From Tubulanus polymorphus (Eukaryota; Animalia; Nemertea), in NCBI RefSeq assembly GCF_964204645.1, contig NC_134025.1, forward strand, positions 22,300,299 to 22,364,298: a DNA stretch of 64,000 nt, written 5' to 3'. Position numbers and translations under genes: made by a program. Below the pieces are notes generated by a model. The model was not told where the DNA came from, searched no databases, and was given only the letters and a program-made list of their open reading frames with translations. This document shows, in pieces, positions 41,434 to 64,000 of this stretch (within the stretch, counting starts at the first letter, position 1; each line of letters starts with the position of its first letter).

Positions 41434-41577
41434 ATTTAAAAAAATAAATTAATAAAAATATCTAGAATCCGAAATGACTTATCTGGACAATTTAATTGCT
41501 CCGCATAGATAGACAAAAGTAGTGAGATATTCAATTAATATTCAATTAATTAAAAAAATTTTTTTTTTGCTTTTTTT

Positions 41578-41940
41578 CTAAAATATTAATCCATTTTTTT
41601 TTATTGTCAATTTTGGAATATCAGAATTATTTTCATTTTTGATAGCAGTTGTTTCAGAATTATTAATATCATGAATTTTATTTGATTTCTTATACCAATT
41701 ACACCCAATCAAAATGAATACAATTACAAATCCAACTGTAAAATATAGACATTTATCAAATATTCTATCATTAGAAGGAGTAGAAATAACAATATTTTCA
41801 CCATTTTTATTAACATTTTTATTACTTATTTTTTCTTTTACAGCTTTTTTATATTCTTGTGATTTAATTCCTAATTGTCGAGACCATTCAATTTGTTTCT
41901 GTAATCTCGGTTTTTTCTTCACTTCTTCCACCTTGTTCAT
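41578..41940 (-). CDS. Polinton hypothetical single-pass membrane protein (120 aa)
   Basis: TAAATG start; hydrophobic segment CLYFTVGFVIVFILIGC. Confidence 0.6.
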   Translation of the reverse strand: MNKVEEVKKKPRLQKQIEWSRQLGIKSQEYKKAVKEKISNKNVNKNGENIVISTPSNDRIFDKCLYFTVGFVIVFILIGCNWYKKSNKIHDINNSETTAIKNENNSDIPKLTIKKNGLIF

Positions 41941-42478
41941 TTATTATAGAAATATTTTTACTTTCAATATTTGAAAATGTTATAACCCCAGTTGATAATA
42001 ATGTCATTAATCCACCTAATTGAAATGATAAATATCCAATCCATTTATTTAATTCAGTCATAACTAAATAATCATTTTTTAAATCGGAATATAATCTATT
42101 TTCATCTTGAATTGGCAGCATATAATTACATAATTTACTATAACCTTTTACTACATTTTCTGATATCGCGTCATTAATTCTAGCTGTTCTCGCGGCTTCA
42201 TAAGTCTTAAATAATCTAATAATTTCATCTGATTTCATTGTATCTAATTCATTATAAGTTAAATTTTTACCGACAAAATTTTTACATTTTCCAGATGCTA
42301 TTAATATTTCTAATTGATGTTTACAATAAAGATAATATTCATAATTATTATTTGTTGTAACATTATTTAAAGCACCATCATCTGGAGTTAATTTTGTTTC
42401 TGTTATTCCTAAATCATCTAAAGTTTTTTCAATTGGAACATCACCATTTTTAGATTTTATTTTCTTTTCACCTCCCAT
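41888..42478 (-). CDS. Polinton hypothetical protein (196 aa)
   Basis: TAAATG start; helical protein with a C-terminal hydrophobic segment. From memory it resembles an accessory family of invertebrate Mavericks (unverified). Confidence 0.65.
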   Translation of the reverse strand: MGGEKKIKSKNGDVPIEKTLDDLGITETKLTPDDGALNNVTTNNNYEYYLYCKHQLEILIASGKCKNFVGKNLTYNELDTMKSDEIIRLFKTYEAARTARINDAISENVVKGYSKLCNYMLPIQDENRLYSDLKNDYLVMTELNKWIGYLSFQLGGLMTLLSTGVITFSNIESKNISIINEQGGRSEEKTEITETN

Positions 42479-42509
42479 TTATAAAACAAATAAATTAGTT
42501 GTGTTGTTG

Positions 42510-42782
42510 CAACTAGAATTCAACTAGAATGTAACTAGAATTCAACTAGATTAACAAGCTAGTTGAAATATTGTTGTTTTTGTTTATTTCTTGTTAAATG
42601 TAGTTGATTTTTGTTCCAACTACTAACAACTAGAATTCAACTAGAATGTAACTAGAATTAAACTAGATTAACAAGCTAGTTAAAATATTGTTAAATCTAG
42701 TTGATTTTTGTTCCAACTACTAATAACTAGAATTCAACTAGAATGTTACTAGAATTCAACTAGATTAACAAGCTAGTTGAAT
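42510..42782. repeat. Internal Polinton repeat array: three ~60-bp units built from 11-bp AACTAGAATTC-like subunits
   Basis: AACTAGAATTCAACTAGAATGT(A/T)ACTAGAATT(C/A)AACTAGATTAACAAGCTAGTT at ~42511, ~42627 and ~42725. Confidence 0.85.
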
Positions 42783-43391
42783 TTAAATAAATTCATATTT
42801 AAATGGGTGTTGTAATCTAAATAGTAATTTTGATCTTTTAATATTTTTCAACTTATCCATATATTCATTATGTAAATCATGCGGAATAATATCATTTTCC
42901 TCAAGCGCATTTTTCATAGATTTTCTATCTTTATTGTAGAATAAAACTAAAAATCTAATGTTTTCTCTAAAATCTTTAACAATTGAATTATATTTTTGAT
43001 TTAAAACCCATGTTGTTATCCCGAAATGTCTACCAGAAAAAGCTAAATAACATAACTCACTCTCTCTAATTTTTGAATCATGTAAATTTGCGCAATCATC
43101 TATAATGAATAATGTATTTGATCCTTTATAAATATCAATTGCTATTTTAATACAATTATCTAAATTTTCTTTTACGGTTTTAGGATCTAATATAATAAAT
43201 TTATTATTTCTAGTAATATTTCTATCATAAGTTTGATTAAATTCATATGTTGGACAAAATAATACTATATTATCAAAATAGTTTTTATAAACAGTTTCTA
43301 ATAAATTTAATATAAAATAAGTTTTTCCACAATTTGTTACGCCAGAAATTAACATATTATGAGGCTCAAATATAAATAATTCCTTATTCAT
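42783..43391 (-). CDS. A32/FtsK-like genome packaging ATPase
   Basis: Walker A GVTNCGKT, Walker B LFIIDD, SGRH arginine motif, LNQ motif. Confidence 0.92.
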   Translation of the reverse strand: MNKELFIFEPHNMLISGVTNCGKTYFILNLLETVYKNYFDNIVLFCPTYEFNQTYDRNITRNNKFIILDPKTVKENLDNCIKIAIDIYKGSNTLFIIDDCANLHDSKIRESELCYLAFSGRHFGITTWVLNQKYNSIVKDFRENIRFLVLFYNKDRKSMKNALEENDIIPHDLHNEYMDKLKNIKRSKLLFRLQHPFKYEFI

Positions 43392-44515
43392 TTATATATT
43401 TTTAATTTTACTTGATAATATCCATTCATTGAATTTATCTGGCCATCCAACCCATTTTACTAAAGAATATTTTTTTCTTTTAATAGTTTTTGTTTTTAAT
43501 ACTTTTTCAATTTTATATTCTTGTTCTAGATTTTCAGTAGTTAAACTTCTTCTTCGTAGAAGTAGCCATCAACTTCTTCACCATCTAAATCTTCTAATTT
43601 ATAGACATATGGTTTTGTTGTTATTACCTTTTTTATTTTATATATTTCCCTAGTAAAATTTCGATCGTATCCTTTGTCAAATATCTTTTTATACTTAGAA
43701 ATTCTAACATTTTGACCAACTTTAAATTTAGGTTCACCAAAATCATCTACAAGAAATGCTCCATATAAATTATTCCAAACAATTTCAGCATTCTCAGGTT
43801 TTCTAGCATCAATAGGTTTCATTCCAATAGAAGAATGATAAGAATTATTATATCCTTCTATCAATTTTGGTAAAACATCAATCCATTTAAAAGTATTATT
43901 TGCTGTAAAATATTTCCACATTCTTGTTCTTAATGTTCTATTAAATCGTTCAACAACTGCTGCTTTTTTATCCGATTTTGTTGAAAAATATTTAATATTA
44001 TGATTGTCTAAGAGTTCATGAACAAGTGAATTATCAAATTCTTTTCCATCATCAAATTGTATTTTTTCTGGTTTTAGTTTATCATCCGAAAGAAATTTTC
44101 TTAAAACATTTGATGTTTGTACAGCATCTTTTCTATAAAGTGGGAAACTCCATACATAACGACTAAAAATATCAATTATATTCAATAACCACCAATAATC
44201 ATCATTATCTTTCTTAACATTTTTCATATCAATTAAATCTCCTTGCCACTGTTGATCTACATAACTTACCATAGTTTTACGAGTTTTATATTTTCTAACA
44301 ATTTTTTTATGTGTTGTGTATGTTGGTTGTTCTAACATAAATTCATTTATATCTTTATATTTAACTAAATTTTGTGGGATTATCTTATCTAATTTATCTT
44401 GTTTTACTTGACGCCATATATTTTTAGTAGAAGAATAAGCAACCGAACTCTCAGGGTTGTAATATAAATTTCTTAAATATTGTTCTTTAGTATTAGGAGT
44501 TTTTTTACCACCCAT
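43392..44515 (-). CDS. Retroviral-type (rve/c-) integrase with a C-terminal chromodomain split off by a frameshift
   Basis: WQGDLIDM, IIDIFSRY, IQFDDGKEF, VVERFNRTL (DDE) and YFYEEE. In another frame, 43543-43392 encodes YKIEKVLK...LVKWVGWPDKFNEWI (chromodomain). Confidence 0.92.
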
Positions 44516-44545
44516 TTATATATCGTTAATTTTAACTTTATATTT

Positions 44546-45815
44546 CTAATATTGAATACTATCTAATTGTGAATTTACAATATTTAATTGTGCATCGGAT
44601 ATAATATAAATGTGCATTTTGAAATTTTTGTCTCCTCTTTTCTTTGTCATGAATAATTGTATTCCATCTTTAGTGTTCTGTAGTTTTTTTCCAGAACCAT
44701 GTAATGAATTATCCTCTGTTGTTCTAAAATCTAACCATAATGCATATTTATTGCCGGTATAATAATCAATTTGATTAATATTACAATTTTCAAATGATTT
44801 TACTTTTTCATTCATAAAATGTTTTCTAATTTCTGGCCATTGATCTATCATTCTCATTCCTTGACAAAATATTTTATTTGCTATTCCTTCGATAGTTATT
44901 TCTACTTTTGTTATTTCAGGATTATAATAATTATCAACCTTTATTGCGCCATTAGAATATGTTGCAATGGTAAAAAATATTAATATACCTTTAATAGATC
45001 TTCTTGGGAAGTTAATATTCTCATTAATTATTTCATCATTTGCATTAATAGTTACAGTTTTAAATTTATCAATATAATCATATAATAATGAAAATCCTTG
45101 ATTGTATTGAGTTTGAATTGTGCTAGCAATATTTTCATTAGTTACTGTGTCATATTCTAAACATATATTCGATAATTTATAACCCATATCTTTAACAACG
45201 CTAGATAATACAATTTCATTCACAGGAGCAAATGTTATCTCAAATATAATATCTTCTTGAATTGCGTATTTATATAAATTTGCATTATTATTTATCAATT
45301 CAAAGTCTAATGGAATTTTATATTTGCTTCCATAAATCTTTTTAATCAAATTATCTGTGGCACGAGTTACTATTGCGTCATTAACTCCTGATCTTAATTT
45401 ATTATGGTTTTCCGATTGAATGCCCTGAAATATCATATTATTTCTATTTTCTTTAGTTAACCATAAATCTTTATAATGCATAAATAAATTATAATCATCT
45501 AATGAGAAAACTGTTTCTGGACCAATCTTTATAGTTAACTTTTTAATCAAATATCTTCCAACATTATCAACAACATAATTATTATCATGACCAATTACTT
45601 TTATATCAGCTGATAAATAAATACTATTTGGAACATAAAAAGTATTTTATGTATATATAAAGTATGTTATATAGATATTATGTATATATTTTATATAAAG
45701 TTTCATCGGGATTAATATTTGAAGGATTATGAGTAATTATATGATGTGATCTTTCTGCTTTAATAGCATTAGATATTCTAGAAATCTTAGAAAGACTTAT
45801 ATAACTCCCACTCAT
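44546..45815 (-). CDS. Major capsid protein (double jelly-roll type); 5' part disrupted
   Basis: ORF 44546-45550 plus an upstream segment from TAAATG at 45815 (HIITHNPSNINP...), interrupted by an AT-rich low-complexity patch at ~45645-45700. Beta-rich, with ALWLDFRTTEDNSLHGSG. Size and position fit a Maverick MCP. Confidence 0.7.
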
Positions 45816-45835
45816 TTATTTAACAAAAAAATTAA

Positions 45836-47296
45836 TTATTTATTTTTTATTATTTTTTCTTGATATCTTTTTGATATCATATTCACTAACCCAAAAATAA
45901 TAGCACTTTCAACTGTAATTAAAAATAAAATAATATGTTCAGCAGCAAAGTTAAGAATATTCCCAGCAGATTTCAATATAAAACCAACAATTGATGCAAT
46001 AAATCCTGGTAATGCTGCAGCAGATTTTTTAGATAGTTCCCATAAATATTTTGCTAATTTCTTTAAACCATCCTTAACTTTATCTTGTATAGAATTATTA
46101 TCATTCGGGGGTTTATCTGGTTTATTGGGAGTAGGAGTAGATTTTAAAGCATTTGATATTGCTAAACCAATTGTTGTAAATAACATAGTTACAGCTGTTA
46201 GAATTGAAAGAATTGTTATTCCTTCTAATTTGAATAATAACTTTATTCTATCTTTCAATGATACTTCAGAATTTGGTTTTATCAATAAATCTTTAAAAAT
46301 AACTTTTAATCTATTAATATTATAATCATATAATTTTAATAATAATTTAATTTCTTCTTTTTGTAATTCTATGTTATATTCTAAATCATCTTTTTCTTTT
46401 TCTAAACGTAATTCTTTTTGCCTATATTCTATTTCATCAATTATTTGATGATCTAAATCAGACTTTAATTGTTCTATTTCTTTATTTTTATCAGTTAATT
46501 CTTTTTCTAAAGTTCTAATTTTAAAATCTCTTATACTTTTATCATGCGCAATTTTATCAGATGCATGTCTTATACTTTCAATTTCTCTAATTGCTTTATC
46601 AGAAAATATATCTAAATCTTCTAGTTGTTGATCTGTTGCATCAATTAATCCATTCGGTAAAAGTTTTTCAATTGGAACTTTATTTGATTTAAGTTTACTA
46701 GTTTTGGAAGTTATATTCTGTTCAGAAGTTGTTTCTGTTTCTGATTTCTTTTTGATTATTTCAAATAATTCATTAATTCTTTGTTTAAATACGTCTATAT
46801 TATCATCTATTTCTTTTTGTGTAACATCAGTTATTTCATTACTATTACTTATTATTTTAATTCTATCTGGTTTTAAATTTTTCAAAGTTGATTCCGCTAA
46901 TATTTTTTTTTAATTATTTTTATAAGTGATATCAATATAATAATCACCTTTCAGATTATAATAACATTTACCATTATCTAAAAATCTTAATTTATCTACT
47001 AAAGGTCCAACGTCTTCATCATTTATGTTAAGTTTAGATTTTTCAATTATATCTTCTAATTTAGCTACTTTGTTTAAATTATTTAAATCTTTTTTTACTA
47101 AACCTGGGTCTAAATTTTCAGGATTTAATTGTGATTCTGCATTTTTAATATAATCAGGCATATTTAAATTATTATTATATCCTGGATCATTACCGTCATT
47201 AAAACTTGTTTCACTAAAATCAGGTTGTTGTTCATCAGTTATGCCAGGTTCATTAAAAAGATCCATTCCAATATCTTCTCCACCTTCTACATCCAT
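45836..47296 (-). CDS. Coiled-coil + C-terminal membrane protein (adintovirus 'GasderminX'-like); one in-frame stop at 46910-46912
   Basis: ORFs 46910-47296 and 45836-46885 are in the same frame. Long coiled coil, then LKDRIKLLFKLEGITILSILTA...AAALPGFIASIVGFIL hydrophobic helices. Confidence 0.6.
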
Positions 47297-47312
47297 TTAT
47301 ATAATAAAAAAA

Positions 47313-48639
47313 TTAAAATTTAAAATATAACATTCCTCCTATAACAATTCCTATACAAGTTAAAGCTAATTTAGTATTTTCATGTAATTTATTATCATTA
47401 TCAGTTTTAATTATATCATGTTGAATATTATCAGTTTTAATATTTTCTGTAGTATTGTAATCTTTTATTTTGGAATCATTATCCAATTTAATATTCTTAG
47501 TTTTAGTTTCTGTTGATTGAATGTGTTTTTTATTTTTTTCACCTTCCATTAATTTTGGAGCAGTAATAATCTTTTTATTTATATCATTTAATCCAATTGA
47601 ATTATTTATTGTTGCAGTTTTAATTAGATTATTATAACCAATTATATTTCCCATCTTTAATACTAAATCATTAGAAATAATTAATAGATTAGGGCCTATA
47701 CAATAATTTAGTCTTACATGAGATTTATCTAAATAATTTTGATATCTTACAATGTTTTCCGGAATCGATCTATTTTTATCATTATGAATGGAATCTTCAA
47801 ATAATACTTTGAATTGTTTCTGCGCATCGAATGAAGTGTTATCATTTCCAATTATTGGGGATCTTGTTTCAACTTGCGCACCTAAAATACATATCAAATA
47901 AGTTCTAATAGATTGATTTATTCTTTGTATTCCAGCTTTAGTAAAACCTTCACTATTTTCTAAAATGAAATTAACCCAACCATTATTGTTTTGTTGTTGT
48001 ATATTATTATAATATTTTGGTAATTCATTCCAATTTAGTGTTCTTATATCTGAATTTGTCATTATTTTTCCAAATTCTTTAGTATATAATATTCCTAATC
48101 CACCCATTGTTCCAATTTTTGCTCTAAAATCTTTATTTGAATTAATATTAAATTCATTACATATTTTATAAAACTTAGAAAAATTAATATTATTATTCAA
48201 TTCTTTAAAATATTTTGAACCTGGTAAAGGACATTCTAATTCATCTAATATTAATTTTATTTGAAAATATGTATGAAATCTAAAAAGTTATAACATCAAT
48301 GGTAAACTTGGTTTGTTTAAATGAGATCATTTCACTAATTCCACATCCTGTTGTTGCACAATAAACAGCAAAATTTAATTGGTTCTGCCAATACTTCATA
48401 TTAGATTTCAATAACCATTGTTTTGCCTCATTTAAATTTTTGAAATTAATTGTATACACATGAAATATATTTTCCATCTTTACATGAAAATTATTACTTT
48501 CAGTAACATAAATATATAAATCATTTAATGAATTTAAAACTTCATTTCTATATGTAATATCTTTATTAAAATCTAATGCAGGAATATTATATTTAATTGA
48601 TTTATTATATTGGAAAGCTTTTGGAAAACTATCTACCAT
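47313..48639 (-). CDS. Polinton protein of unknown function, frameshifted near 48280-48320
   Basis: TAAATG start at 48639. WQNQLNFAVYCATTGCGIS, then in another frame HTYFQIKLILDELECPLPG...GFTKAGIQRINQSIRTYLICILGAQVETRS; C-terminal TM segment. Confidence 0.65.
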
Positions 48640-48656
48640 TTATATAATAAAAAAAT

Positions 48657-49090
48657 TAATAATTTATTAATTCTTTTAATAATTTATCTTGTTCTTCAAC
48701 TGTTATATGGCCATTTAAACTTATTATATAATCTAGTGTATTCTTTAATTTATTAATTTCTTTTATATTAGTTTTAATTTTTTCTTTATTACTTTTTATA
48801 TTCAATTTTGAACTTATACCAGTTAAAACACTTGAACTTAATCCTAATACGCCAATTGATATAGCTAAAGGTGTTAATGGGCTGAATATTGCTAGAAATG
48901 TTATTACAGAACTAATTAAAACCGAACCACTAATAATAAGATAATATATAATTTTACTTTTTAAATATTTTTACTTTTTTACTTTTAAGTCACTTTCAAA
49001 TTCTAATATTTGTTTTTCTAAATATATTTTTAATTTAGTTTCACTGATATCATGAGGAATAATATCAATATTATCAACTTTATCTTCCAT
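48657..49090 (-). pseudogene. Small Polinton membrane-protein gene, frameshifted
   Basis: TAAATG start at 49090 (MEDKVDNIDIIP...). The hydrophobic ITFLAIFSPLTPLAISIGVLGLSSSVLTG segment is in a shifted frame. Confidence 0.5.
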
Positions 49091-49110
49091 TTATTTAGCG
49101 AAAAAAATTA

Positions 49111-49533
49111 CTAACTAGTAAACTTATACGCCACAAATATAACAATAACAGTTCCACCTAAAATCCATATTATTTCATATTTCTGTTGTTCTTTACTTGG
49201 GGTATAATAATCTGATATTGTAGGTTTATGTAGATGTAATTTTTCTTTATTGGTTACCGCGTTATATAAACTCATTGCATCATCAACTGATTGAAAATCT
49301 CTATGTGAAATCTTCTGATCATATAATTCCTTGTTAATATAATCCATATAGTTTTGCCTCTTTTCTCTATATTCTTCTGCTGCTTTATTATATTTCTCTA
49401 ATGCTAAGTTATGTCTTTTTTGTTCTGATAATGATCCATTTTTATCAATATGTTTAAATAAATAACCACCACCAGTAAATGCTAAAGCGTTAACAATTGC
49501 CGATCCTATAATAGTTATAACTGCAGAAGCCAT
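49111..49533 (-). CDS. Polinton small protein with N- and C-terminal hydrophobic segments (140 aa)
   Basis: TAAATG start; MASAVITIIGSAIVNALAFTGG...EQKRHNLALEK coiled coil. Confidence 0.7.
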   Translation of the reverse strand: MASAVITIIGSAIVNALAFTGGGYLFKHIDKNGSLSEQKRHNLALEKYNKAAEEYREKRQNYMDYINKELYDQKISHRDFQSVDDAMSLYNAVTNKEKLHLHKPTISDYYTPSKEQQKYEIIWILGGTVIVIFVAYKFTS

Positions 49534-49818
49534 TTATTTAGTAAAATAATTATGCATTTATATGGGAGGAATATATTTTTGTTTTTCTAAATAATCAATA
49601 GTTAAATTAGATAAAGTAACTGCTAACGTTAATTTTAAAATATCATTTATATCAAATCTATCAACATTAATTAGAAGCCATTTATTTAGTAAAATAATTA
49701 TGCATTTATATGGGAGGAATATATTTTTGTTTTTCTAAATAATCAATAGTTAAATTAGATAAAGTAACTGCTAACGTTAATTTTAAAATATCATTTATAT
49801 CAAATCTATCAACATTAA
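49525..49818. repeat. 148-bp-period tandem duplication
   Basis: AGAAGCCATTTATTTAG...CAACATTAA at 49525-49670 and again at 49673-49818. Confidence 0.9.
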
Positions 49819-49926
49819 CACTTCCCATTTTAAATACTTTTCTAATACCATTGAATAACCAACAGTTCCAACTGATAGTAATGCTCCATTATATAATCCA
49901 GTTATTATCCACTTATTATCACTCAT

Positions 49927-50283
49927 TTATTGATCAAAAAAATTACTATCATCAAAATATTTAGTTATCTTATTTATGATTAATTCGACATTTATTTCAT
50001 TACTAGTTTCATTTGTATATATTTCAGTTATTATTTTTTTAATATCATCGATGATAAAATCTTTATCTAATTCATAAAATCTTAAAGATTCTCTAATTAA
50101 ATTAGTAATCTTTTCTACATTAAAAGTTTCTTTATCTATTGTTTTTTCATACTCAAATGTTGTTTCATTAGAAAATGCAATATTTTTGATATGTGTAATT
50201 ACATCATTAACGTTACATTTCATTTCTTTCTCACGTTTAAAATCAAATCCAAAACATATGCTCGGCCCAACAGTTATATTCAT
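49927..50283 (-). CDS. Polinton hypothetical protein (118 aa)
   Basis: Clean ORF with a T-run/TAAATG start; its stop abuts the next ATG (TAAATG). Confidence 0.6.
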   Translation of the reverse strand: MNITVGPSICFGFDFKREKEMKCNVNDVITHIKNIAFSNETTFEYEKTIDKETFNVEKITNLIRESLRFYELDKDFIIDDIKKIITEIYTNETSNEINVELIINKITKYFDDSNFFDQ

Positions 50284-50299
50284 TTATATAATGAAAAAA

Positions 50300-51088
50300 T
50301 TACTCTCTACATCTTATAACTAATTCATATATCACAGGAAAGTTATTCAAATCAATTAAATAACCATTATGATTTCTTATTTCTAATTCAAAATTATTGA
50401 AATGTGGAATACAAGGTTTAAAATCACATTCAGCTAAATTATAATTTATTTGCGTTCCAAATTGTTTAACATTTTTTAATGGTAAAATATTTAATATACT
50501 AGAATTACAAATTGTATCTTTAGTTGCTTCAAATGTTTTTGTAGGATTGATTAAATTGCAATAAATATAAAAATGTGTAAAAGTCATTAAATTTGTATAA
50601 GTTTCGATACTTGAATAATCTCTATCCGGGAGAATTCCAAACAGTTTAGCTAAAGGTTTTCTTACTAGAAATCTATGTTGTTCATTAGTTAACTTTATTC
50701 TTATTTTATTCGAACTATCACTTTTGATAAATTTAATTTCAAATCTAGCAGCTGCGCCCATTTTTAAACGAGCTCTTCTATTAATTTCTTGCGCTAATGT
50801 TTCTAAATTATATAATCCTGGTTTTAGATAAAGATGAAACCATTTATTCAAATTTCTAACATGAATTTTAAAAGCTAAATGATCAAGACTTTTATTCGAT
50901 ATATTATGAAAAGAATTACATAAACTTATATTAACTAATTTTAAATCAACACAATTCTTAAATTCTCTATCTAATTGAACTAGTAAATTATGAGATTTAT
51001 AATTTGTAAGTCTTCTAGAATCAACAAATATTCTGTATTCTTTTAATTCTACCATTATTAATAACATAAAAAAATTACCGCTCATCAC
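50300..51088 (-). CDS. Probable minor capsid (penton, single jelly-roll) protein
   Basis: Beta-rich ~250 aa, with PGLYNLETL, FYIYCNLI and the C-terminal ELEIRNHNGYLIDLNNFPVIYELVIR pattern typical of Polinton minor capsid proteins. The likely start is MVELKEY (51054). Confidence 0.65.
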   Translation of the reverse strand: MMSGNFFMLLIMVELKEYRIFVDSRRLTNYKSHNLLVQLDREFKNCVDLKLVNISLCNSFHNISNKSLDHLAFKIHVRNLNKWFHLYLKPGLYNLETLAQEINRRARLKMGAAARFEIKFIKSDSSNKIRIKLTNEQHRFLVRKPLAKLFGILPDRDYSSIETYTNLMTFTHFYIYCNLINPTKTFEATKDTICNSSILNILPLKNVKQFGTQINYNLAECDFKPCIPHFNNFELEIRNHNGYLIDLNNFPVIYELVIRCRE

Positions 51089-51123
51089 TAAAAATTAATT
51101 TTAATAAAATTTTTCCTAAATAA

Positions 51124-52452
51124 ATGGATGAGAAGATAGCATGCGAAATTTGTGGTGAACTTCTAAGAAAAAGTAATATGGCTCGACATATGAAAAAACA
51201 TGATGAAAATTATAAACCCCCTAAACTAAACTGTCCAAAATGTAATAAATTATTCTCAAGAAATTATGTTAAAAAACATTCAGAGAAGTGTAAAATTAAT
51301 GGCGCAACGGCTAATGTTGATAGTAATGAAAGTAATAGTAATTCTGTTGAAGTTGAACCTGAAATTATTTGGAAAAGACCTTTCTTATTCTATGATAAGG
51401 ATAATATAAAAGATCATTTCTGCGAGCCTTGTCGAATAAAATATAGCCCTGAAAATATAGAAGATTGGGAGAATCATCAATTTCGTAAAGCACATATAGA
51501 TAAAATTTCTAATAAATTTGAAACTGAATTCAATGAAAGAAAAAATAATATATTAGAAAAAATAAAATGTGAGAAAACGTTACCAGATAATAAAGAAACA
51601 GTTGAAAAGTTAGAAAAACAATATAATGAATTAACAAGAAAAACATATTATTGTAAATATTGTAAATTGATTATTACAACAAGTAATTCAAATCTACATA
51701 ATAGAACAATAAAACATAAAGAAAACGTAAGAAAATACCAAGAGCTTAATGAAGATCTATTACCAAGAAATTATGAACCAAAATTCCCACAATGTAGTTA
51801 TGCGACCTTAAGGCAAGAAGGTACTGTGTTATTTTGTGTTGATTGTGGATGGCAAAAGAATTTATGGGGTGAAGAAAAAACTAGAAATTTTCTCATAGAT
51901 CCAAAATTAAATTATCTAGATGAAATTTTTAAAGTATTTTCTATAGAAGATCATACACCAGAATATATGCAATGGCTTGAAAAAATGAAAATAATAGAAA
52001 ATAAAAATGGTGAAATAACTAAAAAAGATATTATAAAAACAATTATTCCGTCAACTATTAACACAAAACAAAAGAAAATGTATTTATATTTATTATTTAA
52101 CGATTATTATGAAAAACCTAAATTAACAGAAGAAGATATGGAAAATATAAAAAAAATATTTAAACAAATATTAATGTATCATTTGGAAAATAGAATAACA
52201 GATTCAATAAATTATGAATTCTTTTTAAATAAGATTGTAAATTATTCAAACATCGATATTATAATTCCATTTGATGAATTAACGAACAAAAAGAAACAAA
52301 GAGAGCGAGATGAAATGTGGTACAAGGTAGAACTATATTTAAATGAGAAAAATGAAATGGAAGAACCTAAACAAATTATACAAGAACAATTAAATGAAAA
52401 TGAAGAAGCCAATAGTGATTTCGAGTATGATGATATTGATTTTATGTTTTAA
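51124..52452 (+). CDS. Polinton multi-zinc-finger protein (442 aa)
   Basis: CEICG...HMKKH, CPKC...HSEKC, CEPC...H...H, CKYC...HNRTIKH and CVDC; acidic tail; TAAATG start. Confidence 0.8.
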   Translation: MDEKIACEICGELLRKSNMARHMKKHDENYKPPKLNCPKCNKLFSRNYVKKHSEKCKINGATANVDSNESNSNSVEVEPEIIWKRPFLFYDKDNIKDHFCEPCRIKYSPENIEDWENHQFRKAHIDKISNKFETEFNERKNNILEKIKCEKTLPDNKETVEKLEKQYNELTRKTYYCKYCKLIITTSNSNLHNRTIKHKENVRKYQELNEDLLPRNYEPKFPQCSYATLRQEGTVLFCVDCGWQKNLWGEEKTRNFLIDPKLNYLDEIFKVFSIEDHTPEYMQWLEKMKIIENKNGEITKKDIIKTIIPSTINTKQKKMYLYLLFNDYYEKPKLTEEDMENIKKIFKQILMYHLENRITDSINYEFFLNKIVNYSNIDIIIPFDELTNKKKQRERDEMWYKVELYLNEKNEMEEPKQIIQEQLNENEEANSDFEYDDIDFMF

Positions 52453-55400
52453 TGGCCATAAGGTAATGTTTTTATACCATCATCTAAAATATGCCTTTTA
52501 TCATCAAATGGATTCAAACTAGTTTTTTCAACTTCATTAATGTACATCTCGTGATCTTCTGATCTTAAACAATTCATTTTATGTTTCATTACAATTGATT
52601 TATATAAACACTTTATATATAATCTTGAAATTCTATATGTTTATCGACCACATGTTTTGTTATTCCTTTTAACTTTTTAGCTTCATGATCTTTTGTTCTA
52701 TAACTATACATTTATTTCTTATCCCAACAAATTCAATCATTTCATCACCCCCTAATTCATCTTTAAATTTACCAGGAATCTTTTTATTATCATTGCTAAA
52801 TAGTTCATGATCTTTGGGATAATTGCTAAAATCAAAATGATGTTTTAATGTTTTTAAGTCTTTTGTTACATCATTTGTCTTGATTTTTAGTATGTACGCG
52901 TCAGTATTGAAGCAAATTAATGGAAATCCACAGTTAAATGTACCATCTTCAGTTGATAAATCATAAACATAATCTGATGGGTTATATATTTCAAATAAAT
53001 CTTTAACTTCTTCAGTTAAATCTTTTTCTGTGTGGCTTAGATTAAAGCAATTTGGTTTAGATTTAATCAATCCAATATTCATATTGAAGCCTAATGAATT
53101 ACATAATATATTTAACCCTGATATAGCATCTTTTCCTTTCTGTGCAAAGGTTATCTTTTTATCCTTTGTAAATTTTTTAGCACCATCTGCTGCATAGAAT
53201 CCAATGAAGAACCATTTTCTTAAATTATTTTTTGCATTCAATACATAATCTGGAACTATCTTTTCTTTTGTCGAAGTATTACTTTTCACTATTGCATGAA
53301 TATAGAATTCATCATTATATTTTATAGCAAAATCTTTAGGATTATTTACAAGTATTCTATAAACTGCTGATGATTTCATAACACCCATGATTCTAAATGT
53401 TTTATGTGAATAAACTTCTTCACAGAATTTCTTAATTCTTTCTAATAATTTTAAGTCTTGATTGCATAAATACCAACAATATTTATTACCCCAAACATAT
53501 TTATACACACCTGCTGAACCATCACCCATGAAAAATCCTTTGATAAAATATTCTTTTTCTTCTAATGTTTCGGGTTCTATATTATAAATATTATCAATAA
53601 TTTCATCAAATGACTTATGATTCATTCTTTGGAAAAATCTTTTATGTAATAATTCATCTCCAATTTTTATATCAGTTGGTTTTATTTCATCACCATTTCG
53701 TTTAATTAAACTATGATCTTCTGTAACATCTACAAACCCTAATTTAGTTCTAACTCTATAGATTTTCTTATTTGTTTTATGCCTAATAATATTCTTTAAT
53801 TTTTTCCATCCATTTCTTGTCCAAACATCCATTAAACCATTTATTTGTATTAATTCTTTTTCACCATATGAAATATAACATTCATTTTGTTTTGGAATTA
53901 TTTCTGAAATTCTTCTTATCAATATTTTATCATTACATTTTAATAATATTGGGGTGTCAGCTGTTACAGAATCAAAATATAATATTTCAATATGCTTTTC
54001 CCCAAAAAGTGGTTGTAAAACATTATAATAAAAATCATACATTAATAATTTTGATACTTCTAAAACAGTTGAACCAATGAATATAGGTTTATTAAATTTC
54101 ATTGACGTTCTTTTTAATTTAACTGCTGTTAAATAATCTTCAAATCTTTTATTTCCTAAATGTCTAGGACTTGATTGTAAATGTCTTAATCTTTCAGAAT
54201 TATTTACTAATTCAATATCATTTCTATTTCTAATATTTTCACATGTTTTACCATAAAAACTATTATTAATTTGAAGAAATCTTTTTCAAAATCTGTTTTT
54301 GATATGGTTCTCTGTTGAGTATTAAAATCTATATATTTTTCTAACCACTTCGATTGATTAAATTCAATATATCTATGTACTTTCTTTAATTTCATTCCTT
54401 GTTTTAGATAAAATTTTAACATTCTATAATGAACAATATAATTGTATTTATTATTTTGAGTAAGTATTAATTTTTCTGTAAAAACATGATCTTTCGGTTT
54501 TATTTTCTTCTGGTATTCACTTAAATAACTATCATCTACAGTTAAATGTTCTGGGCAATAAGGTAAGTTTCTTGTTTTAAACTTTATATTTTCAGGATAT
54601 TCTAAATCAACTACAAAGAAATAACCAATTGGTGCTTCATCTTCTAAACTCATAATTGCGCTTTCCCAATTAGTTTTATCATCATTTTCAACTTCTGTTA
54701 ATATAAAATTTTTATATGGTTGAGGTTGCATCATTGCCCAACTATATAAATTATTGGCGTCAATATATAATTATTTATATTCATCATTTGCTTTAAAATA
54801 CCTATCTCCCATAACACCACTAATTCCACCTCTAATTGATTTTTCAAATAATAAAACCATGTCTGGTTCTTTTAATAAATCTAATTCTACATTTGTATAT
54901 TTCAAATCACATTGCCAGGTTAAACCAGGACTTGAATAACAATAACAAGGATCAACATTAAAATGATTTGAATTAACTTCTCTAAATTTTTCAAATATGT
55001 CAGCCAATATCATAACATCTGATTTTAAATATAAATCAACTAATTCACCATGATTTTTCATCTTAAAATGGTTCCAAATATTTAATGTTCTATTAAACAC
55101 TTCATCTTTCACATACTCCTCTTTTAATTGATCATAAAATTGATCTTTTAATAATTCTGTTACATTAAAATCATTGTGTGTTTTATAAAATGAATAAGGA
55201 ATTGCACCTTTATATCTCAATAATTTAAAATCTTGGTCATTTGGATAATAATATCGAGTTATAACAAAATCATTATCAACTAAACTTTTTGATAAATTAT
55301 CTAATGAACTTGCTAGAAATCTATAAGAATCTAAAAATCTAATGCAACCAAATTGAAATGAAATATAATTTTCAGATGTTTTAGCTAATAGTTTAAAATC

Positions 55401-57275
55401 ATATTTCCTTACATTTACACCATTCATAGCATTATGTTCTTCTATTTCTTGATTAATTGTGCCCAATTTCCTTGATAATTGTTTTATAAATGGATGGGTA
55501 TCATAGCCTGATAAATTATGAAATAATATTGGAACGAAATTTACTTTTTTAGCTTGTAAATTACAATCTTCATGAGCAGCTCCACGATATTTTGAATTTA
55601 AATGATCATGATCTCTAACTTTTTTATCAAATGAATAAAAACGTTTTTCACAATAACAACAATGAGTTGCATAATTAAAATCAATTTCATCTTCTTTTGT
55701 CATAACTATTCTTTTATTTTCGTTTAATAATTTTGCAAAATCACTTTCTAATTCAATCATTTTGTTACAAAAATCATTAACTACATCTTCACCTCTAAAA
55801 GAAATATATTGACTTTCATATAATTCAGGATAATTTGATGTTATATAAATTCCATAAGCAGCAGCTCTTTGATGAACTTTTTTAATTGTATTTATAATTG
55901 GTGGGTCTTGTATTGTGTCTTCATTTAATTCATTTCCTTTATCCATTGATTTTAATAATTGCTTTTTGTTATATATTTCTTTTCTATCTTGATCAGTTAA
56001 TTCTTTATTCAACGATTCAAAATCCCCATAAATTACAAATGGAACAATATTCTTAAATTTATGATTAGTAAATTTCAATTTATAATCTTTTTCTGTTGGC
56101 ATTATTAATTTACAAAAATCTTTATTATCACATAATTCTTTATGTTTTAATAATGTATTCTCAGTCATAAATTTAGATAAACATTTTCTACATAGATAAA
56201 TTTTATGATGATGATCACTTTCTGTTCTAAAGAATAAATCAATTTGTTTTAACCACATATAATGTTCATTTTCATCTTTTTTGTAATATAACAAATCTAT
56301 AGCATTTTCATCATCATAATATTCTGTTAAATATAAAGCTTCCAATGTATAATCTTTAATATTTTCACCTTTTGTCTTTGGTAATTGCATTAATTCGAAT
56401 ACATTTATTTTTAAATTATTAACTTTTTCTATTTTAGAAATCATTTTTATAGTTACTGGATATTGATCAATTTTATATAATGTTTCATATTTCCGATAAT
56501 CTGTTATTCTACAAACATTTCCTGTGTTGGATGTAAGTAACTAATAATTGACCATAGAAAACATTTATTATCTTAATTTTGATTATTTATTACTGCTTTT
56601 GTTGTAAATGGTAATTTAATATAAGATGATGCTTTAATATCCTTTTCTGTTATAAAGTTTGAATCATTTTTAAACATTTTATTACTTTTTGATGTTTTAT
56701 TTCTTTTTGTATTATAAACATTTAAATCTAAATATATAATTTCATTCAATGTTAAGCCAGAACCCTCAAAATATCTTTCTTCAATATGACGTTTAAATTC
56801 ATTAAATATTTTTTCTAACTTCTCTTTTATTTGTGTTTTTGAAATTATTTCTTCAGAGAGTGTTTGAATATTATAATTCATTTTTTCTTCTGACTTTATA
56901 AAACTTACTTTCCCAGAGATACTAATTTTTGGATATTCAACATCTATTATCAAATCTAGTATTTTTTCTATTATTTCATTAAATGTACTATAATCTTCTA
57001 TTGTTGTACCTTTAAAAAATCTAAATATAATAGCTGCAGGACCAATTTTACTATGTAATGTTTCTAAAATTTCAATTGTATCTTTTATTTCTAGTGAATC
57101 AATATAATTTCTAACATTTTCCATGTAAGGTTTATTTGAAATGGATTTAGTTTTTGAAGTTGGTTTTTTTACTTTTTGAGGTTTATCGTCAAAATAATCT
57201 TTTCCTAAAACATTATTACTCAAATTTTGGTGGTGTTTTTGTGATTCGAGATGTCTATTATAATTCCTTTTTACT
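52449..57275 (-). pseudogene. Protein-primed family B DNA polymerase (pPolB) with an intein; multiple frameshifts, 5'-truncated
   Basis: Fragments in order: EGSG, DNKCFLWS...HYMWLK, Endo VII-like CCYC...RDHDH...AHEDCN, Exo FHNLSGYD / FLDSY / YLKSDV, IRGG, motif A YIDANNLY, motif B K..NNSFYGKT, motif C YFD|intein|TD, and the terminus FDDKR...TLPYGH*. Confidence 0.93.
52906..53970 (-). mobile_element. Intein (355 aa) with LAGLIDADG homing endonuclease in pPolB motif C
   Basis: Block A SVTADTPILL; block B VDVTEDHSL; LAGLIDADG-like FIKGFFMGDG and FFIGFYAADG; block F YVYDLSTEDGTF; terminal FN followed by +1 Thr. Removing it restores LYFDTDAY. Confidence 0.93.
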
Positions 57276-58641
57276 ATCGCGAGAAATACTGTAGGAATTT
57301 GTATGTGTGTGAACTAAACGCCACGGGAGAGCGCTTCTTAGCCGGAATGCGTGAGTTTCTAACTTTTCATATATACCGGTACTTTGCATTGATTATAAAT
57401 CATTAATTTCTAAATCCAGCGTGGGACGTTTTAGGTTCGAACCCTACGCCGTTGTTCGCACAGTCGGGTATCTGGTGCTGTAAGGTTCGAATCTCTGGAA
57501 AGATGTGATATGAGATTTTCAGAAAGAGCACTTTCTCGTTCGAACGGACTCGAAGCCCTGACTACGGAAGGAAACGTAGATCACTGACTGATAATCTTCT
57601 CGAACTGATCATAATCACTGTTTCTATCGCAGATTATGACGGGATTGACGCTGAAACAATACAGAGAATTTCCGTTGAAGATCTTGAGTGTTTGAGGTTT
57701 GATAGAATGCAAAGAGGTTACGCTGTTGATTACAAATGTCGTGAATGTACGAGAAATACAACTGATGACACGTACACCTGCCCGAGTTAATTAGGTCTAG
57801 TGTCTATCGTGATTACCGTGAAACAATTGATTCATTCATATTAATCAATGTTGTAATAATCATTGATAATAAAGAGTCATTCTCTGCAAGATTCGAGTCA
57901 GAAAGTGCTAGTTTTTGGCGGGACCGAATTGGTTTTAGGCGAGTCAGGAGGCTTCGGTTATTCAGGAATCATCAGTTTTAGGCCGGAGAAGCGCAGGATG
58001 AATTTTACGTACGAACTCGTTTCAGTTAGAATGGGAATGCAGTCTGATCAAACTACGGCCGTGCATGATAAAAGGGGCGCGAAATCGAGCCGATTCGACT
58101 GTGACACACTGTTTCACTGGGACCACTGGTGGTTTCTTAAGCCTTGTTGCACACGGCACCGAAACATTTTTTCCCCGAGAAATACATTTTCGTTTTGGTC
58201 ACGCCGTCGTGTGTCAGTGAAGTTTTTGTTTTGGTCAAACATCTACGGGTGTGCGGCGGCGGCTTAAAAAGGGAAAAAGAGTGAGAATCCGCAGATTTTT
58301 GACCCCGACTATACTTCCTGCGATGAAACCGAAGGAATTCTATGCACTGTGAAATGAAATCGGCCAGCAGGATAAAATGCCAGAACCTCAGTCCGACAAA
58401 TAACGACTGACATCCTAATTTTAGTGTAGCTGCCGCCTGAGTCCGAGCCCATGCCCATATCTGTCAGACACGTTTTAGGGTGGCCGTAACCACACATCAA
58501 TTCAATCCATTCAATTTATTCAGCCACAAAACCGCTTAATTCGAATCGTTTTGGGCCAATGACACTGATTTCGTCTATGAGAATCCCACATTATACATTT
58601 CTCGGAAGCCGAATCATCTTGTATTCTGACCAGATCCGAAC

Positions 58642-61600
58642 ATGTCAGTTGTTGTTTTACAAGTTGGTCAGTGCGGCAACCAAATCGGCCAAAAGTTTTG
58701 GAACTTAAACCTGCAAAACTCGCAGTCGCTTGAAAAGTAATAATACTTCACCTGCTGGCAAAAATTATGACCAAAGTTATTGAGTGAATTCCTCAAAAAA
58801 AATTAGCAGCCAGTTGCTCACAAGTTGGCTAAAGATAACCAGTGGATAAATACCATATAGTCTATGAACTTCACTTTAAATGTCAACTTTCCACTGGTTA
58901 ACTCTAACCAACTTTTGATCAACTGGCCTCAGTATTTATGTTATGTTTTGTTTATGTTCGCTAGTTGTGTGTTTAATCATTTGGATGGGAAACTTCGTTC
59001 TGTAAATATCGATGCCGAATCGAAAGTAATTCGCCGACTGCAGAAGGATATCAAGAAGTCGTAAGTTTTTCGATTTGTTTCAAAACGAGAATAAAAGAAA
59101 GATCTTCTATGCAGGTTTTGATTGAACAAAATATTACGCATAAGGAAGAGCAATTTCGGATTATGAATTCTATCGGCCTACTATAAGTTCTATTGAGTTT
59201 ACAGTACAGGGTGTAGGTAGAGTGTATTCTTTTCAAAATGAAAATTAACGCGCCAGAAGAGAGTTTGGAATCAGTAGAGACCAATTGAAACCTGCCATTC
59301 AATCGTCCTAGAAATGTTACTGGTTATTGTGGTTTATTGATTGGTTGTATTTTACATTTTTTTCAGCAATTTGCGGGAAAATAATGTGGTTTTGGGGAAG
59401 AGAGGATGTGGTACTAATTGGGCTATCGGTAGGTACCTGATCATTCGAGCTTACTTTATCCACTCAAAACGCATCCTCGCCTGCCAGGGTTTGATTGCCT
59501 CCCACCAAAGTTCACGCCAACACTAACCCTGGCCGCAGACCCTTTATTGGTCTATTACACTGCCAAGTATTGCTCGGGTGGACAGGTAATCACTCAGCGG
59601 CCACCAGGCTATGTATTAGGCCAACCAGATGCATAACAGCAACCTGTCCGCCCAAAAAATCTTGGGCAATGTAATAGACCAATGAAGGGTATGTAGCCAG
59701 GGTTTGTATATGCCCCAGCATTGGCAGGAGGCAATCAAACCCATTGGCAAGCGGGGATTCTCTTGACAAGGTTCTCAAAATTAGTCCACTGTTACCAGAA
59801 GAGTTAGGCCTACCTTTGCCTGGCTAATCATTTAGTGTTTTGACATCATCTCATGCTTAGGTTATCACGGCTTAAAATCCAGTGGCGATCATTTACTAGA
59901 AGGATCTCTGGAGTCTATAAGAAAAGAAGTTGAAAGATGCGACCGATTCACTGGTTTTTTAATGATGCATAGTTTAAGTGGTGGAACAGGTTCAGGTTTG
60001 TTGATATAGCCAGTATTTATTTATCAATGGGCCAGTTACTCGAAGTTAGTTAAATGCGGTCTTAGTAGTAGCGGTCTTTTCACTGTTTGATATTTAGAAC
60101 TTTGCCATTAATGTAAATTTTGACGTTATATAACTAATTGTAAAATAAAGCATATAAACATGAAGTTAGCCGGTAAATGCTGTTTGATTGAATATCTTTA
60201 ATGGCAACGAAGGCCCCAGTCACCCGCTATCCCGATAAATGGCCTGCATAACAATTGGATATCTCACTCGCTGATCTAGACTTTTTGCCTCCCCACACAA
60301 AAAAATTAGGCAAATCATGTCTAGGTAAACTTAGATCTTTAGGGCTCTGATATAGCACAATTCTTATAATTCAAAGAATTTGAGACATTACAGAAAAGAT
60401 CTGGCATTGTAGACCAAATGGATATTGTTACTTACCGTTGGATCTTTGCTTGCTAGTGCATTCTGCTGGATTCCTCTTTGAAATCATATATTATCTTGTA
60501 AAAATACCTCCCCAGCAGATATTGCCTTGCTTGATATTTTTTTTCTAAGTTAAATTATTTATGTCTTTCCTTATTTTCTAGGTTTAGGCTCACACATACT
60601 GGAGTGTTTACGAGATTTGTACCCTCTCAGTTTTACTATTTCCAACGTTGTGGCTCCGCATTTATCTGGAGAAAGTCCGTTACAACATTATAATGCTCTC
60701 CTTACAATGGCTCATCTTCAAAGGTATTTGTTTTGAATGGATCCGAGTATTATTTTGTTATTGATTCATTTTCTTTACTTTAAAAAAGTCGGGGATTTTG
60801 TGAAAAAGCTAAAAGTCAGGGAAATTTGTTGAGATAGTTAGATCACGCGTAAAATTCAAACAGTTTCTGTGTTTTTCTTCGTATTTGACTGCGTTAATAG
60901 ATTGGATTTATAGCAGATCAAGTTCAGGAAAACAACGAGCATTTCTCGCAAAAAGCTAATCGAATAAAACTGATACAGGTACTTCTTAGTCACAGCGTCC
61001 AGGTTAATCGTTATTCTAGATATTCATTTTTATCAAGTTTTGCAGATGGAATTTTACTCATTCAAAACGATGAAGTTCTTCACCAACTGTCGAAAGCGAA
61101 GAAAGACTCTGGTATCTCATTCGCGCACATGAATGACTATATTGCGTCATGTATGGCCGGCCTCTATATGCCGACTGATACACTCGCCTCGAAAAAGTAA
61201 TTATCAGAATCATCTTCGTGAGAATATATCTAATATACTTGGTTAATTACATTATATCTTGTTTCTCATTTCTGCTGAGCTTAAAAGTTGACCCAGCCAG
61301 ATGCCTATCTACCCTGTGTGTTACTGATGTTAAGATCATGATCAAGCTATCTTTAACAGACCCGGCAGTAGAAATTAACTGATAACAAATTTCATTGCAG
61401 TTTACAAAATGACCCGGCCAAGAGAAACAAGATATCATGTTCGTTTAGCCTTACCTAAGATTTTAATCTGTAATTACCAGTGATATGAAATGAATTCCTA
61501 TTTCAGTGGATTTAAAATCGGCCTAGAACCTGTGGAATGTATACAAGCAGTTTGTCCGATGCCACCTGTGAAATTCTTCACCGTTAATCAGGTCTCAAAA

Positions 61601-62887
61601 AGGCAAGTTTCATAGGATCTGTCTTTTCATCTGTTTTGCGCAGGTATTAGTGATATTTTTCAAGTTTTTTTTTTTCAGGAAGGAAACTTGGGACTCGTTG
61701 AGCAAGTCATTGCTGCAAACAGTGAATAAATATGATTTGGATGGTATTCCTGTATCCTTTGAATTTTGTGTCCATAAAATAGAACGAAATGTTTTGTGCG
61801 TGAATCATTATGGCAGAATGTATTTTCCTTGATGGTTGTGAAGTATGCTTCATTGAGCAATTTAGTAGTTGCCCGCGGTGATAAGACGCACTCGTATCGG
61901 TATAGTCAAGAGAAGATCGTTGAAAAAATCAAAACCAGTTACAATTGTGTGAAATGGAATCCATTTCCGGTCGATACTTGGACAGGTATGTTGATATCCA
62001 GGAAACAGTTCTGAGTAAAAAAAATTGACAAGGGCCAATATTTTGGAAAAAAAAACTTATTTTAACCTTACGACGGTAACTCCGCCAGAACTGGGTCAGG
62101 GTTAGATTCACTCATCGTTTTCTCGTCTTGTTTAGCTCAAGATAATCATTCCGGGATGAAAGATTCGTCGTCATTAACAGTAGCCGCAAACTCCTCATCG
62201 GTGGTCACTTATTTAGAACATGTGTTTGATCGAGCCAAAACTAAATACGAAAACAACGCGTATCTGCATTGGTTCTGGAAACATGGTTGTTGCAAGGTAG
62301 GTTTGGATGTGACCACTATGTCGCTTGATATAGAGTAGACTCTGCCAATAGTACTACTGTACTTATATTCCTTCCATACTAAGCTTCTGTCTACTTAACT
62401 AATACCGGTATTCCTTCAACCAACTTGAGTGTTTTTCACACCTTAGAAAGAAAATCGCCAGTCGAAAAATTAGTTTATTAGTTTGTAAATATGTATGTGA
62501 GGTTGAGAGAAATGAAGATTTTGAAGGCTGTCTGCAAATTAGTCCACACGAATTCACTTGTAGAAGAGTCTAGAGTAAAATAGAAAAGCAAAGACCTGGT
62601 TCCACAGATGTGAGTTAGGGTTAACTCTGAGTTAAAATTCAGTTTGTTTTCAATGAGTTAAATCTTAACTCACACCGTGCAACTGGGTATAGGGAGATAA
62701 TGCTTTGATACTACGATTTTAGTCCACTTCAAGTTGGATGGAATTAAAAAACATACCAGTAACTACTGATTGTGCCTTTTTTGTCTCAGTATTGAATGAC
62801 TTCAAAATTCAATTTCAGACTGACTTTGAAAATGCATTCGATACAATCAACTCGGTGATTGATAGTTATAAATCAGCCACAAGTTGA
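58642..62887 (+). CDS. Zeta-tubulin-like (delta/zeta class) tubulin, multi-exon
   Basis: MSVVVLQVGQCGNQIG, IDAESKV, GKRGCGTNWAIGYHG, HSLSGGTGSGLG (tubulin signature), GESPLQHYN, NDE, AYLHWFWKHG...; TGA at 62885-62887. Confidence 0.85.
61752..61843 (+). other. U12-type (minor spliceosome) GT-AG intron
   Basis: 5' splice site GTATCCTTT (61752-61760); branch site TTCCTTGAT (61825-61833) just upstream of AG (61842-61843); no polypyrimidine tract. Splicing keeps the frame (DGIP|YASL). Confidence 0.85.
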
Positions 62888-64000
62888 AAGCTGATCGAAG
62901 ACACTGGACCTTAATGCTGGACATTAATGATGATTTATCATACTCAATGCTGGACATTAATGATGATTTATCATATTGCTGGCATCACTGGATTTTGCCA
63001 GTGGAATATTTTCTATTGTTCTGTTCTATTATATACACAGTTATATATATTTTCATACTTTTTTTGATATAATAAAGATAACTATAACTTTAATACAATC
63101 TATTTCTTCTATATGATGTGTTTCTAATTCTGTTAGTCACCTGATTAAGTGAGGTCCCAGTCTATTAGATCTATTTATAGCCACTATTAACATAAATTTA
63201 TGAGAAATGCGTTTAATCCTGATTTTTCATGAACTGAATTAAAGTTAATCCCACCTAACTGGGACATGGATAGCCAACATGGATTCTTGATTAACTCGGA
63301 TAGAAATGAACATATTTCCAGACTCCTTTACATTTTTCTGATCCTCAACTCGCACCAGTTTTCCCAGACCCAGTCTGGGCTATTGAAGCAATGTTTAGGG
63401 ATCATTCATTTATTACGTACGCATAAGATTTTTCAACTCCCCCTCCACCTCTGTACGCAGAATCGGCCATTTTATCATATGCATTACAGTATGCAATTGC
63501 ACTGACCCCTCCCCTAATGCGTACGTTTTAAATGAATGACCCCTTAAAGTATTTCAATTTCTCCCTGATAATGTGGGTTTTACTAGATAAAGAGGAAATG
63601 TCTGGGACTCAGTGTAGCTGATTTTCTATCCAAATTTTTCGTGGATCATCGATTGACACCTGATAATCGCAAATTCAAGAAGTTGAGTGTCTCTCAAGTT
63701 AGTTGGGAATAGCAAGGATGCCTGGCCACCGCTGTGGAATTGTATTACTGATGCCAGGTAGAGACCAATTAGCGTAACAAATGAAGCCATGCCGGTAGCC
63801 TATGTATGAACAAACAAACAAACGAATTCAAGTTATATATTATATTAAAGAACTATTTTATTTATATGCACCATTATACCTTCATCAACACTGCAAAATA
63901 CATAATGCAACTAGCAGGCAATCATTTTTCAAACTGACCACATCGTGAAAACTACATCTATAATGTATATCAAAAGTGGAAGATCTGTGAATTGAAATAC

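Follow-up and report, generated by a model that had tools for sequence, protein, structure and literature searches.

Evidence for a pol-c intein, predicted to splice and likely mobile, in the catalytic motif of a Polinton polymerase from an animal genome

Introduction

The protein-primed DNA polymerase of a Polinton-type element residing in the genome of the nemertean Tubulanus polymorphus is very probably interrupted, inside its catalytic motif, by a LAGLIDADG-bearing pol-c intein that is predicted to splice and likely homes. The gene lies in a window of 64,000 nucleotides of contig NC_134025.1, the whole stretch analysed here, to which all coordinates refer. On sequence grounds we consider the pol-c intein to be real; no earlier report was found of one in this class of polymerase or in this kingdom of hosts, and the evidence for its mobility is good but indirect.

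The Intein: Boundaries, Fold and Residues

The insert is encoded on the minus strand at 52906..53970, where the translation gives 355 residues with zero stops (SVTADTP...GFPLICFN) in one frame with both halves of the polymerase (...EILYFD / SVTADTP ... GFPLICFN / TDAYIL...). With Ser1, Asn355, Thr+1 and a Hint fold joined to a two-motif LAGLIDADG fold, it is placed among the class 1 inteins. Its N-terminal Hint part, which would carry out splicing, comprises residues ~1-112 (53635..53970, minus strand), is all-beta in the structure model and matches TIGR01445, the profile of intein N-termini, over residues 2-88 with 30.9 bits, above the cut-off of 24.5. The endonuclease domain, residues ~121-313 (53032..53610, minus strand), has both LAGLIDADG acids (Asp150 and Asp262) and matches Pfam LAGLIDADG_3 with 28.3 bits, above the cut-off of 22.5, and the C-terminal Hint part with blocks F and G (52906..53013, minus strand) closes with a G-F-P-L ending common to the sister clade described below. 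The Pfam Intein_splicing profile is also matched (E 4.3e-8), at 33.5 bits slightly below its cut-off of 35.8. Structure prediction from ten relatives (pLDDT 82, pTM 0.86) gave a model whose top matches in the PDB are endonuclease-bearing inteins (TliVMA, E 3e-16; PI-PkoII, 1e-15), and I-DmoI was likewise matched. Matches to the Tissue-factor and Toxin_R_bind profiles were dismissed as due to chance or a shared fold.

Block B Thr83 and His86, F4 Asp337, Phe354 and Asn355 are all present in the window intein. In addition, Arg63-His64 aligns with the RH of PI-PkoII and the KH of Aes123 PolB1, two solved Ser1 inteins. The accessible part of one study describes Arg or Lys before the motif NX His in Ser1/Thr+1 cysteine-independent inteins (PMC10189870), and in our reading, which relies on alignment, Arg63-His64 would be motif NX and fit that class. 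From 121 relatives, 8 with unclear ends were dropped and 113 aligned, including 2 retained with mis-picked starts. His86, Asp337 and the terminal Asn are invariant among them (113/113 each), and the LAGLIDADG acids are nearly so (Asp150 in 107/113, Asp262 in 108/113). By site, 109 of the 113 lie at D|TD of polymerase motif C and 2 in topoisomerase II, the other 2 being those with mis-picked starts.

Alternatively, the insert might be an intein that has decayed and does not splice, or a Hint domain alone, its filled copies being dead and helped by the polymerase of empty copies. This reading, which we judge very improbable, draws on the assisting His residues at F13 and G6, neither of which was found in the window intein (Gly343 and Phe354 are there instead), on the Intein_splicing score just mentioned, and on the facts, detailed below, that the window copy is a pseudogene and that empty helper copies exist. 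It has to contend with the presence of Ser1, His64, Thr83, His86, Asp337, Asn355 and Thr+1 together, and with a family of seven full-length filled polymerases whose exteins are nearly identical. Furthermore, hedgehog-type Hint domains, to our knowledge, have no LAGLIDADG domain and split no catalytic motif. Both His residues are likewise missing from 64/113 aligned relatives, in which the penultimate residue is Lys 49 times, His 40 times and Phe 6 times, and according to the accessible text of a review neither His is needed by every intein (PMC4031507). Since the catalytic residues are present and the two missing His are dispensable in some inteins, splicing of the intein is likely.

The Insertion Site

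The intein splits polymerase motif C at D|TD, which is the pol-c site; the Mimivirus PolB intein is described at the same site, YGD|TDS (PMC549080). Each flank was compared on its own with 120 polymerase relatives, of which 88 spanned both sides; the gap is 0 in 87 of them, while the 88th contains a 354-aa intein. Among the remaining 32, in which the site is not spanned on both sides, one (P0269) contains an intein piece. The preliminary description, made from the sequence alone, had proposed an intein with block B, LAGLIDADG helices, a Ser start and an Asn before Thr, located at the pol-c site. Profiles (two of three above their cut-offs over the 355 residues), residues and fold bear out the first proposal, and the second is confirmed by the flush flanks and the site shared with Mimivirus; exteins that fail to align contiguously after excision had been named beforehand as one possible refutation, and contiguity was found.

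Where motif C could be read in empty Polinton polymerases (P0156-P0274), it is D-C-D and not D-T-D in 31/83, possibly an escape from the endonuclease.

The Polymerase and the Element That Carries It

The protein-primed family B polymerase gene (52455..57277, minus strand; PF03175, E 1.2e-9), mapped against intein-less relatives, is broken. There are frame changes near 56515, 54270, 52711 and 52610, one stop near 54771 and, by comparison with the same relatives, a loss of about 72 residues at the N-terminus. Owing to these five breaks, which include a stop upstream of the intein, the window copy would be unable to make the precursor: it is, as the breaks indicate, a pseudogene polymerase, a dead fossil of its family. 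The open intein frame was considered as a sign of selection and the argument dropped, as 1065 unbroken bp are often expected by chance at that rate. The window polymerase also holds an HNH/endonuclease VII-like insert (PF02945, E 0.014).

This gene belongs to an AT-rich (20-26% GC) Polinton/Maverick-type element of ~16 kb at 41076..57277, the left end being approximate and the right end supported by read depth and loose read ends; sharp GC steps mark both ends. The element encodes, on the minus strand, a retrovirus-like integrase (rve; 43541..44515; PF00665, E 1.9e-10), an A32-like packaging ATPase (42783..43391; PF04665, E 3.3e-13) and a probable double jelly-roll major capsid protein (44546..45815), whose gene starts with TAAATG at 45815, is apparently broken near its start and matches its profile weakly (PF16903, E 0.023); its Atlas look-alikes (0.97) are of low recognition value. 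A candidate minor capsid (penton) gene without profile match, at 50300..51085 on the minus strand, is assigned to that role by resemblance. No cysteine protease was found by Pfam or PHROG match among the frames of this truncated copy. Terminal inverted repeats were not detected (best inverted score 33, against a shuffled mean of 28.7 and maximum of 37), and a target-site duplication was looked for at the element and not found. Because the copy breaks off within the polymerase gene, we class it as a truncated element of Polinton type. The protein-primed Polinton polymerase suggested at the outset is thus sustained by PF03175, the rve integrase and the A32-like ATPase; the family is the one proposed, but the broken state of the polymerase, the truncation of the element and the missing His at F13 and G6 of the intein had escaped that first reading.

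Ten of the 11 whole-looking gene starts in the element (41107-51124) read TAAATG, compared with 55 of 659 ATGs over the element as background; over all ATG frames of at least 100 aa the count is 10/18, the 7 left out being pieces of broken genes. These starts resemble poxvirus late promoters. Neither promoters nor TAAAT were found mentioned in PMC11296320, and TAAATG goes unmentioned in the further papers screened for it.

Side by side with the polymerase lies a gene for a zinc-finger protein of 442 aa (51124-52452, plus strand), on the opposite strand and tail to tail with it. The element also contains an exact 146-bp tandem duplication (49525-49818) and a 97-bp three-copy repeat (42465-42781).

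Residence in the Animal Genome

The element is flanked by animal-type sequence. To its left end adjoin the remains of a BEL/Pao retrotransposon (33594..41019, minus strand; PF03564, PF05585, PF05380), itself carrying a younger insert of ~4 kb with 562-bp direct repeats (35787-36348 and 39282-39842) that are 99.8% identical. The interior of this insert (35787-39842) is strongly C-skewed and without long frames. To the right of the element a host gene of the tubulin family, with several exons, runs over 58642..62890 (plus strand, ends approximate; PF00091, E 2.6e-10 for exon 59881-59997); it is probably delta- or zeta-like. Further host genes at 6873-31898 comprise laminin G frames, rhodopsin-family receptors (one of them broken, 22668-23485) and three MAM exons, and the Atlas neighbours of one of these receptors are all animal clusters among the matches listed. 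The host is an animal, and the gene that the intein occupies is that of an endogenous virus-like element rather than a host gene; the animal host and nested transposon setting first described are in agreement with the flanking genes and the BEL/Pao neighbour.

Raw reads from another study of the same species (X5) cover the polymerase at a mean depth of 298, the intein at 182 and the flank (950 bases) at 8.1, that is, ~37 times the flank depth over the polymerase and ~22 times over the intein, with family variants 90-99% alike. The element family numbers dozens of copies in this animal genome. At the breaks most X5 reads disagree with the window sequence, and the breaks are therefore largely confined to the window copy. 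In six reads 52868 is joined to 53971, and in 8 to 53967; the 33-37 different letters that bridge the two sides stand in for the downstream flank, have the same length and, read by eye, encode D|TDS in frame. The same empty-site variant is seen at 78 loose read ends. These joining reads mean that empty copies exist in the species and differ right beside the site, and hence the copies with and without intein that the preliminary description wished to see compared are both visible in X5.

A different explanation would make the AT-rich block a free virus, symbiont or contaminant misjoined into the assembly, and we give it the lowest probability of the readings weighed here, regarding it as scarcely credible. 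It would account for the sharp GC steps at both ends and the missing terminal repeats and target duplication, as well as for the summed contig depth of a further read set, X1, which over 52500-57349 is some 400-2500 times that of the flank and far above X2 or X5; this value is not a copy number, and it possibly reflects amplification or free viral DNA in the sample. Moreover, in X6, a run with the same species label, the element was not seen, which is no proof of absence. On the other hand, an X1 contig crosses the element-to-flank junction without difference, with ~30 letters on the element side, X1 being possibly the source sample. The depth and variant spectrum of the independent X5 study also speak against a contaminant, the five inactivating changes fit a resident copy, and no close match was found in prokaryote genomes, phages or giant-virus contigs. 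Misassembly, raised at the start as one possible refutation, is therefore countered by the X5 reads and by the X1 contig across the right junction, both of which fit a resident copy.

Filled and Empty Copies: Signs of Homing

Signs of mobility come from the P0003 cluster (136 members, of which 15 are listed), where 7 of those listed are filled, 6 empty and 2 partial. Filled and empty members are 98.5% alike over residues 1-949, and all 10 fixed differences between them fall within -7..+44 residues of the site, with none in the 1034 before. Three site sequences occur among the six empty copies. The seven filled polymerases (1537-1539 aa) are unbroken and form one family with exteins 99.2% alike. 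Bunching of fixed differences at the site is what would be expected from co-conversion with the donor and survival of resistant sites. In the P0007 cluster an empty member equals a filled one at 142/142 upstream residues; two other clusters hold filled members only, among those spanning the site.

In a flank tree with 96 rows (13 of them filled) and 167 columns, the intein state takes 10 changes, 8 of which are forced by starred branches, and the nearest relative of the window polymerase is empty. Such counts cannot tell gain from loss, and many of the changes could be losses. This gives room to the rival view of a single early entry followed by inheritance and many precise deletions, with an endonuclease that does not home now, which we find improbable. 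Consistent with it, the Polinton inteins form one clade, and the identity between the window intein and that of P0002 (228/353) is near that of their flanks (59/105 and 37/62). It fits poorly, however, with P0005, a polymerase of another type, in which the flanks are ~20% identical (18/94 and 13/52) and the intein 48% (163/342). Filled copies on different backbones, in addition, have in common a YMD|TDSFVLSV flank unlike that of their empty neighbours, and both LAGLIDADG acids are retained. Some of the scatter is explicable by losses; the differences centred on the site in a family otherwise 98.5% identical are not. Taken from these sequence patterns, mobility by homing between Polinton copies is likely.

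The model that we favour, a splicing and homing pol-c intein, would work as follows. Ester-based splicing at Ser1 and Thr+1 with Asn cyclisation would restore the D-T-D motif, and because polymerase work requires D-T-D, a spliced filled element is predicted to be still able to replicate. The excised endonuclease would then cut the empty YxD|TD sites of other copies, whether these sit in chromosomes or in linear DNA under replication, and a filled copy, serving as repair template, would pass on the intein with a short flanking tract. Empty copies with altered sites would persist as escape alleles. Polintons would have received the lineage a single time, the donor probably being a large DNA virus that replicated in the same cell, and the TAAATG gene starts would be in line with an entry in a cell shared with such a virus.

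Relation to Known Systems and Significance

Inteins of invertebrate iridoviruses were reportedly the subject of work by Bigot et al. in 2013. Inteins in viruses that infect animals are thus known; those of the iridoviruses belong to large non-integrating viruses, whereas the intein described here occurs many times over in DNA of the animal itself (PMC5784728). This and the following comparisons draw on the accessible portions of the papers cited. The pol-c inteins of Mimivirus, other giant viruses and archaea share with ours the YxD|TD site, the Ser1/Asn/Thr+1 residues, the LAGLIDADG domain and the length (351 vs 355 aa), and relatives in giant-virus-type polymerases are 29-43% identical. Unlike the RNA-primed polymerase that hosts the Mimivirus PolB intein, the host protein here is protein-primed (PF03175); the element that carries it integrates, is 16 kb long and resides in an animal genome; and the Gly of the known YGD site is replaced in Polintons (YFD, YMD, YLD, ASD) (PMC549080).

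In algae and protists, inteins of nuclear viral-type polymerases, and those of Anaeramoeba, have likewise reached the nuclear genome via the polymerase of an endogenous virus, and homing-driven spread within the genome has been proposed (PMC10710043). Their hosts, in contrast, are not animals, and the portions available of that paper and its two supplements mention neither Polinton nor Maverick nor Metazoa. Within Polintons, HNH/VSR nuclease inserts have been described in the protein-primed polymerase, and the window polymerase too has an HNH-like one; those inserts lie elsewhere with no Hint domain reported, whereas here motif C is interrupted by a full splicing domain and alleles without it occur (PMC10748475). 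It has been suggested, in one sentence, that Polinton nuclease inserts stem from intein invasions (PMC11071308), a guess that now gains direct sequence support. With Polintons/Mavericks and adintoviruses in general the element shares the protein-primed polymerase, integrase, packaging ATPase, probable capsid genes, AT-richness and multiple copies; it differs in that the window copy has no recognised protease and no terminal repeats (PMC8502044). The word intein occurs 0 times in that paper, and in the accessible portions of PMC12220804, PMC3671162, PMC13768754 and PMC5718144 an intein in a Polinton polymerase or animal genome was not found. More widely, no report of either was found in the openly accessible literature.

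According to reviews, inteins are absent from metazoan genomes (PMC5784728, PMC8529194). This claim, on which work on intein inhibitors is based, is now to be qualified: the statement that inteins are essentially unknown in animal nuclear genes, with which the preliminary description started, holds for host genes, but animal DNA does contain inteins within Polintons. Protein-primed polymerases are thereby added to the host proteins of inteins. As filled and empty copies occur in one genome, homing, co-conversion and escape can be put to the test one copy at a time. In addition, the family is a source of Ser1/Thr+1 inteins and of LAGLIDADG enzymes whose hosts live at moderate temperature.

A Clade of Inteins in Polinton Polymerases and Its Origin

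Searches for proteins of near or greater length, and among 50% representatives, yielded 36 protein clusters with a Polinton-type intein in Polinton-type polymerases (10 from the first protein search, 24 from a later one, plus P0269 and P0295). Many of them probably come from few host assemblies, and the hosts of related clusters may not all be animals. One such filled Polinton polymerase, P0010, is filed under the bin of a clam bacterial symbiont; the DNA is probably that of the host, which would then be a mollusc.

The full-length Polinton inteins form one clade, both in the tree of 113 rows (10 of them, SH-aLRT 100) and in a rooted one (13 of 70, SH-aLRT 100). The latter, a quick tree of 70 rows hand-picked from the 113 inteins, 3 more Polinton inteins and 10 GTDB loci, was rooted on seven archaeal pol-c inteins, with a long outgroup branch. 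In it the Polinton clade is sister (93) to the inteins of delta-like (giant-virus) and T4-like polymerases, with which it has a G-F/Y/T-P-L ending in common, and the near IMG/VR matches are mostly giant-virus bins. In an AU test, monophyly of all non-Polinton viral inteins was not rejected (p-AU 0.40). On account of the shared ending and of a diversity that is much higher among the viral inteins, transfer from giant viruses to Polintons is the likely direction, with the long outgroup branch and the p-AU of 0.40 speaking for caution. Composition gives no sign of a recent foreign origin, since GC/GC3 are alike in the intein (25%/15%) and the polymerase (21-25%/6-15%). The crossing first envisaged for this one element would thus concern a clade spread over many Polinton polymerases and not this element alone; the phylogeny that had been called for places the clade beside giant-virus and T4-like inteins.

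A Polinton context was seen in 0/117 of the IMG/VR and metagenome loci fetched, and queries with the capsid and with the intein-less polymerase found no viral contig. A prokaryotic source was considered and rejected: full-length matches among 25 GTDB loci reach at most 36%, and phages gave 1 record at 29%.

On a wider reading, for and against which we see the chances evenly poised, inteins would have crossed from large DNA viruses into Polintons and would still be homing in animal germlines, in an arms race that reshapes motif C (the 31/83 D-C-D polymerases) and has given rise to a free-standing form, a poxvirus-like helper factory being the meeting place. Were it true, protein splicing and natural homing would be native to animal genomes. 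The intein is a trace of genetic exchange between Polintons and large DNA viruses, which bears on the question of a dependence of animal Polintons on helper viruses.

Several members of the wider intein family deserve mention. P0016, P0017 and P0018 are polymerases of the sister intein group, and as the best match of P0018 is gp43 of T4/RB69, the family spans phages too. P0099, named DNA polymerase delta of Chloropicon primus, holds an intein of the same pol-c family, and in the type II topoisomerase-like P0008, P0098 and P0102 the family sits at D|TD too, a jump to a non-allelic position. Finally, in the P0414 cluster (55 members; P0414, P0471, P0472 and P0474, also P0418 and P0429) the intein is found as a short separate gene, with a Met 11 residues ahead of the intein and a stop 4-7 residues behind it, possibly a free-standing homing endonuclease derived from a Polinton intein.
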